The notes under the pieces were generated by a model, which was not told where the DNA came from, searched no databases, and worked only from the letters and a program-made list of their open reading frames with translations. A stretch of 32,000 nt of DNA from Promethearchaeia archaeon (GTDB taxonomy: Archaea > Asgardarchaeota > Lokiarchaeia > Sigyniarchaeales > SOKP01). The position numbers and the translations under genes were made by a program. The DNA is taken from contig JAWOFX010000044.1 in the NCBI GenBank assembly GCA_046497275.1, positions 4,774 through 36,773 on the forward strand, read 5' to 3'. Shown here piece by piece: positions 3,267 through 6,571 of this stretch. The stretch's first letter is position 1. Every line of letters starts with the position of its first letter.

Positions 3267-3554
3267 TTTTAGATCAAATTTTATGTAACATTTTTGTATT
3301 AGATATTAAAAATATATAAGTTAATACTTTAAATTTAATAAATCGATCTAATTCAAAATCTTCGTTTTTATGCTATTTATGAAGAAAGAGTTTATTCAAT
3401 AGATGTGAATTAATTGTTGATTTTGAAAATGCTTAACTCATTTTAGTTTAAGAATAGAACTTATTGAGTCATCCCAAAAAATTTTATGTTAAAAGTCTTA
3501 TTTAATATATAGAATAAAATAGAAACGACAATATAAACTCAAAAAAGGTGGTTT

Positions 3555-3935
3555 TTGTTTAGGGTTAAGATTACAAAAACAGCATTAAAATTCATTTATC
3601 GAGAACAAGAAAAAAAATATCCGGATAACAGCAATCGAAAACCGACAATTGCAGTATTTTATCATCAAAATTCAACGTGAACCACATTTTTCTGTGGTAA
3701 TATCGTCGAAGTGGTAGATAAAAATAAAATTCTGAACGATTCGCATCTTTTTATTCTCTGGGATGATGTGGAGGGAAATCCACCTATCGATATATTTATT
3801 GAAGATCAAGTAATGGATGAGATTGAACAAAAACCGGAATTACTAATTGATGCAGTTATAGGAGAAATAAAAGATAAAGAATATGGGATGCTGTTTATTA
3901 AAAAAGATTCAAATATATATATGGATAAAAAATGA
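3555..3935 (+). CDS. HesB-like selenoprotein 1, 126 aa, Sec at codon 42 (UGA 3678-3680), motif STUTTFFCG
   Basis: The frame of the ORF-track fragment 3711-3935 is open upstream to TTG 3555 except for one TGA. SD-like AAGGTGG at 3545-3551. N-terminus FRVKITKTALKFI resembles HesB-like starts. Paralog 2 has UGA at the same aligned position; a SECIS follows. Confidence 0.85.
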
Positions 3936-3968
3936 TCTGATCTTATAAAACCTCGAAGATTGGGGATT
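3931..3968 (+). promoter_or_regulatory. SECIS element 1 (eukaryote-like form: AUGA/GA core, 9-bp upper stem, A-rich loop)
   Basis: AUGA 3932-3935; arm UCUGAUCUU 3936-3944; loop AUAAAACCUCG 3945-3955; arm AAGAUUGGG 3956-3964; GA 3965-3966. All 9 stem positions pair (Watson-Crick or G-U). Confidence 0.85.
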
Positions 3969-3983
3969 GACGGTGCGTCCGTT
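3969..3983 (+). other. small hairpin GACGG-UGCGU-CCGUU immediately 3' of SECIS 1
   Basis: 5-bp stem; an equivalent hairpin with a UGCG-containing loop follows SECIS 2. Confidence 0.45.
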
Positions 3984-4151
3984 TATAGATTCCATATTAA
4001 TTATGTGCTATAAATTAAAAGACAAATATAGAATAGAATTAAAGTAACTTCTTCTATTAAAATTTTAAAATATAATCTGAATTTTTTATTCAGTTAATTA
4101 TTTAGATTATACTAAGAATATAATTAAGAAAAATAATAAGGTGTTCTTAGT

Positions 4152-4505
4152 ATTAAAATAACTCTTACAGAAGATGCTAAAGAAATAATTAAGGAACAGA
4201 GCAAAAAGATTCGTGAAAGAGAAAAAATACAAAACATAGTATTAGCGATTTATCAATACACGAGTGGATCTTGATCTGGATATTTTTGCATGGATCTTGT
4301 TCAAATGGCAGACAAACGAGACGTTGAAAAAAATAGGAACTTCAAATATATGACAAATAATAATGGAATTGAAATTTATATAGAAAAAGATACCCTAAGC
4401 ACTTTAAATTCAATTGAGGAACTAATAATCGATGGAAAAGGAATCGAAAGATATGGTCAAAAAACTGCTCGACTTACCTTAATTAAAAATTACTTAAAAA
4501 AATGA
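4152..4505 (+). CDS. HesB-like selenoprotein 2, ~117 aa, Sec at codon ~41 (UGA 4272-4274), motif GSUSGYFCM; start codon uncertain (ATT 4152)
   Basis: The frame of fragment 4290-4505 is open upstream from 4140 (in-frame TAA at 4137) except for one TGA. IKITLTEDAKEII is a typical HesB-like N-terminus. Aligns with selenoprotein 1 (LAIYQYTSGSUSGYFC vs IAVFYHQNSTUTTFFC; IEIYIEKD vs IDIFIEDQ; ELIID vs ELLID). SD-like AAGGTG at 4138-4143; a SECIS follows. Confidence 0.82.
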
Positions 4506-4538
4506 TCTAATCTTACAAATATTAGAAGATTAGTGATT
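4501..4538 (+). promoter_or_regulatory. SECIS element 2 (eukaryote-like form)
   Basis: AUGA 4502-4505; arm UCUAAUCUU 4506-4514; loop ACAAAUAUUAG 4515-4525; arm AAGAUUAGU 4526-4534; GA 4535-4536. Same geometry as SECIS 1, with pairing-preserving changes. Confidence 0.85.
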
Positions 4539-4541
4539 TTT

Positions 4542-4562
4542 CAGGTTGCGCCTGTTTTTTTT
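4542..4562 (+). terminator. hairpin CAGG-UUGCG-CCUG followed by an 8-T run; possible terminator or SECIS accessory hairpin
   Basis: 4-bp GC-rich stem 4542-4545/4551-4554 and T8 at 4555-4562, in front of the convergent aconitase gene. Confidence 0.4.
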
Positions 4563-4645
4563 AAATAAATGTGATTTATTCACATTCTTCTTTTATTTTT
4601 AATATAATATGAATATCGTAAAGAAGAAATGAAAAATAAACAATT

Positions 4646-6571
4646 TTATTTTTGTTTGTTTCTGATATATGGCAATTTTCCGCCAGCTCTTAAAATCTCA
4701 GTCATTCTATTACTTAAATTATGAATTACAGGTATTTCAGAATTTTGTGTGAGATTATGTACCATTAATTCTCTTTTCTCAAGAGATTCTAATTCAATTT
4801 CTATCTCATCGTCTTGATCAATAAGATCATAATCATTCAATCTCTGAAAAGTTAAAGGCACAATTCCGAAATTAACAAGATTATCTAAATGGATTCTTGC
4901 AAACGATTTGGCAATAATCGCTTTAATTCCCAAATATTTAGGAGCTATTGCAGCATGTTCTCGACTTGAACCTTGACCATAATTTTCTCCTCCTATAATA
5001 AATCCTCCATCACTTTCCAATGCTCTTTTTGAAAAGCTTGGGTCTATAGGATTGAAAACATATTGACTAATCTCGGGAATGTTACTTCTCAAAGGTAGAA
5101 TTTTTGCTCCCGCAGGCATTATATGATCCGTTGTAATATTATCTTCTACTTTAAGTAATACTTTTCCCTCCAATTTGGCAGCTAACGGAGGAAATTCCGG
5201 TAGAGATTTTATATTAGGCCCTCTGACAATTTGTACATCTTTGGCCTCCCTAGGAGGTAAAGGGGGGATGATCATATTATCATTCACAATGAATTTTTTA
5301 GACATTTGTATTTTAGGAAACTCACCAAATTTCCGAGGATCTGTTATTATTCCTTCGATTGCAGCCATTGCAGCAGTCTCAGGACTTACAAGATATACGC
5401 TAGCACTTTTCGTTCCAGATCTGCCAAGAAAATTTCTATTAAATGTCCTTAAAGACACAGCATCACTTTTAGGAGCTAATCCTTGACCAAGACATGGTCC
5501 ACAAGCATTTTCAAGGATCCTTGCTCCAGCTTCAATAAAATAGGCCATTTCTCCAGAACGAATCATATGGTTCACTACTTGACGAGATCCTGGAGAAATT
5601 GTAAGGACGGTATGTTGACTGATTGTTTTGTTTTTAAGCATATTAGCAGCAATTTTTAAGTCTCTTAGAGAAGAATTTGTACAACTGCCAATACAAACTT
5701 GATCAACATTCAATCCTTCAATTTCATGTATTGGTTTAACATTCCCAGGACTATGAGGTTCAGCTACTAGAGGTTCAAGTTCATCTAAATTAATTTCGAT
5801 AACATCATCATAGATAGCATCCTTATCCGGCTCTAATGAGGTCCACACTTCTTCTCTACTTTGTGCTTCTAAAAATACTCTTGTAATTTCATCCGATGGG
5901 AAAATTGAAGTTGTTGCTCCTGTTTCTGTTCCCATATTAGTGATTGTTGCTCTTTCTGGAACAGAAAGTGTACTAATACCCGGACCAGTATATTCTAATA
6001 TCTTATTTACCGCTCCTTTCACGCCTATTCTTCTTAAAACTTCTAAAATAATATCTTTTGCTGAAACAAATTCAGTCAATCTTCCAGTTAAACGTACATT
6101 AACAATTTCTGGCATTCTAAGATAGAAAGGCTCTCCTGCCATAGCAGCAGCAACATCTAACCCTCCTGATCCGATTGCAATCATTCCTATGCCTCCACAA
6201 GTGGATGTATGACTATCACTGCCTAATAAACTTTTTCCAGGAACAGAGAATCTTTCAAGATGGATTTGATGACATATTCCATTTCCTGGTCGAGAAAAGA
6301 ATAATCCATATTTAGCAGCAATATTCTGAAGATATCTATGATCATCTGCATTTCTAAAATCTGTTTGTAGGATATTATGATCCACATAACTTACGGATAA
6401 TTCCGTTTTTACTCGTGGTACGTCCATTTTTTCGAATTGAAGATATGTCAGCGTCCCTGTTGAATCTTGGGTAAGTGTTTGGTCCATTCTTATTCCAATC
6501 ATTTCACCCTTTTTGGATTCTCCATCGATGAGATGATCCTTTAAGAGCTTTTCCGCAAGTGTGTATCCCAT
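4646..6571 (-). CDS. acn: aconitate hydratase (short ~640-aa single-chain type)
   Basis: DHN, GSDSHT, GSCTN and CGPCLG 4Fe-4S ligands, plus a C-terminal swivel domain with TTDHI and NYGQGSSREHA. Confidence 0.88.
   Translation of the reverse strand: MGYTLAEKLLKDHLIDGESKKGEMIGIRMDQTLTQDSTGTLTYLQFEKMDVPRVKTELSVSYVDHNILQTDFRNADDHRYLQNIAAKYGLFFSRPGNGICHQIHLERFSVPGKSLLGSDSHTSTCGGIGMIAIGSGGLDVAAAMAGEPFYLRMPEIVNVRLTGRLTEFVSAKDIILEVLRRIGVKGAVNKILEYTGPGISTLSVPERATITNMGTETGATTSIFPSDEITRVFLEAQSREEVWTSLEPDKDAIYDDVIEINLDELEPLVAEPHSPGNVKPIHEIEGLNVDQVCIGSCTNSSLRDLKIAANMLKNKTISQHTVLTISPGSRQVVNHMIRSGEMAYFIEAGARILENACGPCLGQGLAPKSDAVSLRTFNRNFLGRSGTKSASVYLVSPETAAMAAIEGIITDPRKFGEFPKIQMSKKFIVNDNMIIPPLPPREAKDVQIVRGPNIKSLPEFPPLAAKLEGKVLLKVEDNITTDHIMPAGAKILPLRSNIPEISQYVFNPIDPSFSKRALESDGGFIIGGENYGQGSSREHAAIAPKYLGIKAIIAKSFARIHLDNLVNFGIVPLTFQRLNDYDLIDQDDEIEIELESLEKRELMVHNLTQNSEIPVIHNLSNRMTEILRAGGKLPYIRNKQK

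Follow-up and report, generated by a model that had tools for sequence, protein, structure and literature searches.

Two eukaryote-like SECIS elements in an Asgard archaeon whose AUGA core holds the gene's stop codon, an arrangement probably left by recent loss of stop codons

Within the 32,000 nucleotides of archaeal DNA analysed here (the window), two neighbouring genes each contain an in-frame UGA and each end on a second UGA that lies inside the AUGA of a hairpin resembling a SECIS element. This locus raises the question of whether the hairpins are SECIS elements at all and, if so, whether a stop codon placed in the core is a selected design that serves both decoding and termination or has some other origin. 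The features involved are as follows.

3555–3935, + strand: gene 1 (paralogue A), a predicted selenoprotein of ~126 amino acids with a U-x4-C motif, translated with TGA as U
3678–3680, + strand: Sec codon UGA of gene 1, 254 nt upstream of the AUGA
3932–3966, + strand: lokiSECIS 1, with AUGA, 9-bp stem, 11-nt loop and GA; 50.2 bits with our covariance model
3932–3935, + strand: AUGA of lokiSECIS 1 (stop TGA at 3933–3935), followed by the 5′ arm (3936–3944), the loop (3945–3955, AUAAAACCUCG), the 3′ arm (3956–3964) and GA (3965–3966)
~4152–4505, + strand: gene 2 (paralogue B), a predicted selenoprotein with the motif SUSGYFC
4272–4274, + strand: Sec codon UGA of gene 2, 230 nt upstream of the AUGA
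4502–4536, + strand: lokiSECIS 2, with AUGA, a 9-position stem, 11-nt loop and GA; 63.8 bits with the same model
4502–4505, + strand: AUGA of lokiSECIS 2 (stop TGA at 4503–4505), followed by the arms (4506–4514 and 4526–4534), the loop between them (4515–4525, ACAAAUAUUAG) and GA (4535–4536)

LokiSECIS elements have been defined by an AUGA, a 9-bp stem, an 11-nt loop and then GA (rarely AA); the first five bases of the loop are A-rich, its last base is a G that usually follows an A, and the element is found near the gene end (Mariotti 2016, PMC4989117). The type I eSECIS-like structure of Asgard archaea (Huang, Xiao & Zhang 2024, PMC11227280) is the same element. Both hairpins of the window share the AUGA, stem, loop and GA of this definition, and both lie at the 3′ end of a UGA-containing gene in a genome that has Sec machinery. 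All nine positions of the element 1 stem are paired, three of them as G•U, and element 2 has eight pairs and a U•U at the first position. The stems differ there (U•G versus U•U) and at two further pairs (U•G to U-A and G•U to A-U), every change being one-sided. The loops begin with AUAAA in element 1 and ACAAA in element 2 and both end in G; their last two bases are CG and AG, respectively, element 1 thus differing from the published pattern by a C in place of the usual A before the terminal G.

Matches to this motif are rare and well placed. The strict form occurs six times in the 3.85-Mb genome, with no occurrence in the reversed genome or in five order-2 Markov genomes. With a covariance model that we trained on 28 elements, the genome yields nine sites, each at the 3′ terminus of an ORF that has a UGA in frame. 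These ORFs comprise four VhuD-like genes, three small ORFs and the pair in the window; within the window the model reports elements 1 and 2 and nothing else. Searched at the gathering threshold, Rfam had no family that matches the window, and its SECIS families stayed silent within 3500–4650 even at E≤10; this was to be expected, as standard SECIS tools are stated to miss elements of this type (Mariotti 2016, PMC4989117; Huang 2024, PMC11227280). The one weak Rfam match, to a C/D-box snoRNA model (E 0.21) on the kink-turn-like words AUGAUCUGA, was rejected as chance. These results support the identification of both hairpins as eukaryote-like SECIS elements of the Lokiarchaeota type, and we predict that each gene's own element licenses the internal UGA 230–254 nt upstream. 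A preliminary description made from the letters of the window had proposed two eukaryote-type SECIS elements, each with a 9-nt arm, an 11-nt loop, a second 9-nt arm and GA, with the UGA of the core as the gene's stop, Sec codons ~250 and ~230 nt upstream and stem changes between the copies; the lokiSECIS definition, the strict-motif controls and the covariance model bear out the identification, and the parts, distances and stem changes are as it described them.

Comparison with orthologues adds support for the RNA structure. Across 23 orthologous elements the stem is 93.7% paired, and seven of its nine pairs have changed on both sides, a number reached by none of 500 shuffles. The GA that follows the stem is invariant, and the core tetranucleotide is AUGA in 21 of the 23, the others being GUGA and ACGA (one each); in the literature AUGA is invariant or rarely GUGA. 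The ACGA lies at L010:1873–1876 (paralogue B of G002) and the GUGA at L013:518–521 (paralogue B of G017). The first stem pair is unpaired in 11 of the 23 elements, as is expected at a tolerant position beside the tandem G•A pairs, and the tolerance that the preliminary description had ascribed to this pair is therefore visible across the family. Judged by sequence, the surroundings of the core also have the makings of a kink-turn. At least two consecutive flanking pairs can form in 73 of 86 elements, compared with 50 when partners are shuffled, and none of the 86 is without a flanking pair, compared with 19 expected; the pairs span a 2–3-nt bulge around the core and vary by gene family, being AAA/UUU in the window genes, UAG/CUA in VhuD and GG/CC elsewhere. 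At this level the elements have the flanking stem, the tandem G•A/A•G pairs and the tolerant 3b•3n pair of a kink-turn.

These observations bear on a simpler reading, in which the hairpins are ordinary 3′-end or terminator hairpins, the internal TGAs are the real stops of split or decayed genes, and there is no SECIS. The absence of an Rfam match would fit this reading, as would the very A+T-rich region, where hairpins are frequent, and the T-run after element 2. It does not account for the fixed 4+9+11+9+2 geometry, the invariant GA/GA, the covarying stem and the restriction of the elements to the 3′ side of UGA-containing ORFs, nor for the UGA found in 23 genes at an invariant aligned position and followed by an invariant Cys; moreover, the genome has Sec machinery. 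We consider this reading extremely improbable, and in what follows we treat the hairpins as SECIS elements.

The genome itself is a metagenome bin with 30.4% G+C and 4.4% contamination. Its tRNA-Sec scores 49.4 bits with the Rfam model, over the cut-off, in two matches of 119 nt each (C33:11–129 and C165:63–181), both at contig ends. This length suggests an intron, and an aragorn run without intron handling did not find the tRNA-Sec that the Rfam model did find. An EFsec-like gene adjoins one copy and SepSecS (381 bits) adjoins the other. A nearby aconitase-family gene is most similar, at 72–75% identity, to genes in MAGs labelled Promethearchaeota, the phylum to which the Lokiarchaeia lineage belongs. 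We take the source to be an Asgard archaeon of the Promethearchaeota/Lokiarchaeia lineage that decodes selenocysteine; this forms one part of an explanation of the locus that, taken whole, we hold to be very probable.

The two host genes are paralogues of each other and belong to a family in which paralogues A and B often occur in tandem. Gene 1 probably starts with TTG. Gene 2 has no in-frame ATG, GTG or TTG between an upstream TAA (4137–4139) and its Sec codon; its probable start is the ATT at 4152, which comes 8 nt after a GGTG and aligns with a Met in the orthologues. Homologues of these proteins were found in 14 of the 24 genomes of the same family that were searched, nearly all with a single in-frame TGA, at the aligned position, and a lokiSECIS downstream; the Sec and Cys of U-x4-C are invariant in 23 orthologues. 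None of the 16 genomes searched in other families of the order contains this family.

What these proteins are is best indicated by structure prediction. An AlphaFold (AF2) model of gene 1 from the 23-sequence alignment has a pLDDT of 85.7, and its top eight PDB hits are all IscA/SufA/HesB-like (1r94, 2d2a, 1nwb and others; TM 0.42–0.64, probability 0.95–1.0), with NfuA N-domains and IscA1 as matches in AFDB. The gene 1 protein is thus predicted to have the fold of an A-type carrier (IscA/SufA). Sequence profiles give fainter signals: Pfam PF01521 (Fe-S_biosyn) aligns with gene 2 at E 9e-5 and 23.1 bits, below the cut-off of 26.3, does not match gene 1, and reaches E<0.01 in only one of the 23 family members; TIGR01911 gives no match at E≤1, and a profile of the 23 proteins found nothing among PDB sequences. 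The seven Asgard selenoprotein families listed so far (Huang 2024, PMC11227280; a 2026 review) include no HesB/IscA-like one, and the U-x4-C family of IscA fold is absent from them; in this respect the hosts of the window elements differ from those of published lokiSECIS elements, with which they share geometry, position at the gene end, an in-frame UGA and an AUGA used as stop. A close known counterpart is the HesB-like selenoprotein (TIGR01911, motif UxGP) known from bacteria and Methanococcales, which is likewise small and of IscA/HesB fold, with Sec near the first conserved Cys position; paralogue B reads U-S-G-(Y/P). Unlike it, the window family has a second invariant Cys four residues after Sec and does not have the C-terminal CxC.

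We now turn to the stop codons. With the internal TGA translated as U, both genes first meet an in-frame stop at the core UGA, and both end in AAA-TGA. That AUGA can double as a stop has been described for VhuU.1, and many Lokiarchaeota selenoprotein genes end in UGA, whose recoding would be precluded by the proximity of the SECIS through a 'minimal distance requirement' (Mariotti 2016, PMC4989117); UGA stops were later said to 'often overlap' the AUGA motif (Huang 2024, PMC11227280). The layout and the argument against recoding are therefore already published, which answers the preliminary description's question of whether a stop-embedded element had been described. The argument is physically reasonable. 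A ribosome with the core UGA in its A site would hold the core and the 5′ arm in its mRNA channel; a SECIS unfolded in this way could not deliver Sec-tRNA, and release would win. The same steric logic would have to hold for stops at −3 or −4 relative to the AUGA.

From the shared TGA, and from the stops of the other 24 window ORFs of at least 90 amino acids (18 TAA, 4 TAG and 2 TGA, a tally that we reproduced exactly), the preliminary description had concluded that this arrangement looks selected. The orthologues do not bear this out. In the other genomes of the family all 22 of them stop short of the AUGA, 4–45 nt upstream; the codon is TAA in 21 and a TGA at −14 in the remaining one, and none has the stop-in-core layout. 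DNA alignments, made for gene 1 with three same-genus orthologues and for gene 2 likewise with orthologues of the genus, locate where the two window genes depart from this pattern.

3913–3922, + strand: run of AT dinucleotides in gene 1, containing a 2-nt AT insertion
3923–3928, + strand: ancestral GGA-TAA of gene 1, intact and now out of frame
4491–4493, + strand: TAC in gene 2, at the position of the TAA stop of the same-genus orthologues

These alignments suggest that the ancestral stop of gene 1 was lost through a 2-nt insertion in the AT run and that of gene 2 through a TAA-to-TAC change, after which translation would run on to the next in-frame stop, the UGA within AUGA. In paralogue A the C-terminus ...(V/T)YG-stop, present in 12 of 13 full-length orthologues, is replaced in the window by ...NIYMDKK. 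Past its TAC, gene 2 continues for only three more codons (TTA AAA AAA) before the core UGA. We propose that the stop-in-core layout of the window is a recent by-product of lost stop codons, not a conserved selected design; this is the second part of the explanation that, as a whole, we hold to be very probable.

One could instead suppose that the layout is adaptive, with one motif both licensing the internal UGA and guaranteeing termination, as the preliminary description proposed; it might also couple termination to unfolding of the SECIS and thereby restrict the loading of ribosomes. The genome did arrive at this layout through two different mutations, and the layout recurs in VhuD/HdrA genes of at least three relatives and in the published VhuU.1, and the A-run before AUGA, conserved in the orthologous elements and the source of the window genes' Lys codons, would make an extension harmless. 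Against these points stand the 22 orthologues of both genes without the layout and the fact that stops at −3 or −4, which are far commoner, would place a terminating ribosome on the element equally well. We therefore think it improbable that the layout is adaptive in this general sense. That one genome should have lost two stops independently, both times coming into frame on the core UGA, is nonetheless an odd coincidence, and because this double event is set against a base rate of ~5–8% for the layout (see below), selection specific to this lineage possibly lies behind both losses.

The gene 1 insertion lies in a dinucleotide repeat and could be an assembly error. If so, the extra AT would be a consensus error, and the gene would really end in ...YG-TAA, 4 nt before the AUGA. 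The replacement of a C-terminus so widely conserved and the survival of GGA-TAA out of frame both agree with this. However, 2-nt consensus errors from short reads are uncommon in a 10-nt repeat, and gene 2, which arrives at the same layout by a plain substitution, is left unexplained by it. We judge an artefact in gene 1 quite unlikely and retain the loss of two real stops as the better reading.

To place the window in context, we compiled stop positions for 60 more hits of the model, taken from 30 family genomes, together with the hits in the window's own genome. Among 28 VhuD-type genes, 18 have a UAG 4 nt upstream of AUGA and two a UGA at −3; four have a TAA 15–21 nt upstream, and three clearly end on the core UGA (L064, L097 and L113), with two ambiguous cases of core UGA besides (L058 and an HdrA-like ORF in L098). 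The core UGA serves as stop in 3–5 of ~61 SECIS-linked genes other than those of the window, or ~5–8%. TGA stops of any position number ~8 of 60 such genes (~13%), compared with 14.4% of stops genome-wide. TGA is thus neither enriched nor avoided among SECIS-linked genes, which counts against selection for it in the window, where two stop-loss mutations account for the layout. The UAG of VhuD pairs with a CUA after the GA; therefore, in most VhuD genes the stop codon itself would form the flanking stem of the kink-turn. Stops within the SECIS are the rule in this archaeal family, and the stop-in-core is one end of a continuum that runs from −45 to +1 relative to the core.

The survey also turned up, in 38 of 61 family genomes, a zinc-ribbon ORF of ~38 amino acids (CxxC...CxxC) that ends ...FK-UGA-UAA/UAG (in the window's own genome at C167:699–809 on the − strand; elsewhere at L054:179–295, − strand, and L116–L130). 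In its Sec forms the SECIS core lies 33–53 nt downstream of the UGA, the lokiSECIS starting 30–50 nt past the stop codon; Cys forms end ...K-Cys-stop and have no SECIS, a pattern that also speaks against the reading of these hairpins as terminators. The ORF is a candidate for a new, tiny selenoprotein with C-terminal Sec. Because Sec forms carry the SECIS and Cys forms do not, a UGA as close as 33 nt upstream of the core appears to be decoded. Other lokiSECIS-linked ORFs lie at C118:75990 (−) and C100:58512 (−) in the window's own genome and at L063, L068, L071, L110, L087 and L106 elsewhere. One encodes a protein of ~155 amino acids in which two UGAs stand side by side (...SGC-U-U...); others encode a small membrane protein (...GGGG-U-AC / GEPSG-U-AY), a larger protein containing ...DT-U-CALD... 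and a Prx-like protein with W-U-HA-U.

RNAfold predicts further structure on the 3′ side of both elements.

3969–3983, + strand: second small G+C hairpin, directly 3′ of SECIS 1
4542–4554, + strand: second small G+C hairpin, 3′ of SECIS 2, followed by eight T (4555–4562)
3991–3997, + strand: UCCAUAU, complementary to AUAUGGA at 3919–3925, from the RNAfold of the whole element

When hairpins were counted sequence by sequence with controls (loci L009–L134 included), 81 of the family's 88 lokiSECIS elements had a second hairpin beginning no more than 8 nt from the GA, with 62 distinct arm pairs among them; the corresponding figures were 15.5 of 88 for shuffled tails and 1 of 88 for the 34 nt that come next downstream. 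As a T-run follows in only 35 of the 81, this hairpin probably belongs to the element and does not serve solely as a terminator. We found no description of it in the text of Mariotti 2016 or in Huang 2024. When the 3′ tails were aligned with MAFFT, which misaligned the second hairpin, RNAalifold predicted no structure. The UCCAUAU/AUAUGGA pairing is a weak candidate for a lower helix that would close a three-armed structure: a duplex search found AUAUGG/CCAUAU complementarity in several paralogue-A genes, with mostly non-significant z-scores, and no long lower helix in paralogue B.

Eukaryotic SECIS elements are built around a kink-turn with an AUGA...GA quartet, carry an AAR apical motif and are bound by SBP2. 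SBP2 is not known from these archaea (Mariotti 2016, PMC4989117). The window elements resemble the eukaryotic ones in the AUGA/GA core of tandem sheared pairs, in the unpaired adenines ~11 nt into the upper part, in their predicted action on a UGA that lies some distance upstream and in a minimal UGA–SECIS spacing. They differ in a shorter upper stem, in a lower stem of only 2–3 bp and in touching or overlapping the coding sequence, where eukaryotic elements lie in a long 3′ UTR.

A broader idea would give the layout a function: the core UGA of every Asgard SECIS would be a universal back-up terminator that makes a gene's own stop dispensable, and the embedded state would be favoured in this lineage. 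We offer this as a conjecture with only a small chance of being right. The advantage could, for example, be that termination on the core makes the element unfold and refold once per ribosome and thereby meters the decoding of the upstream Sec codon; such selection would then have left its mark in the two stops that this genome lost independently. The two elements are a clean, comparatively supported example of a SECIS intermediate between archaeal and eukaryotic forms. The survey puts numbers on stop positions that the literature gives only in words and, together with the zinc-ribbon ORF, would bracket the zone in which recoding is excluded between 0 and ~33 nt from the core.
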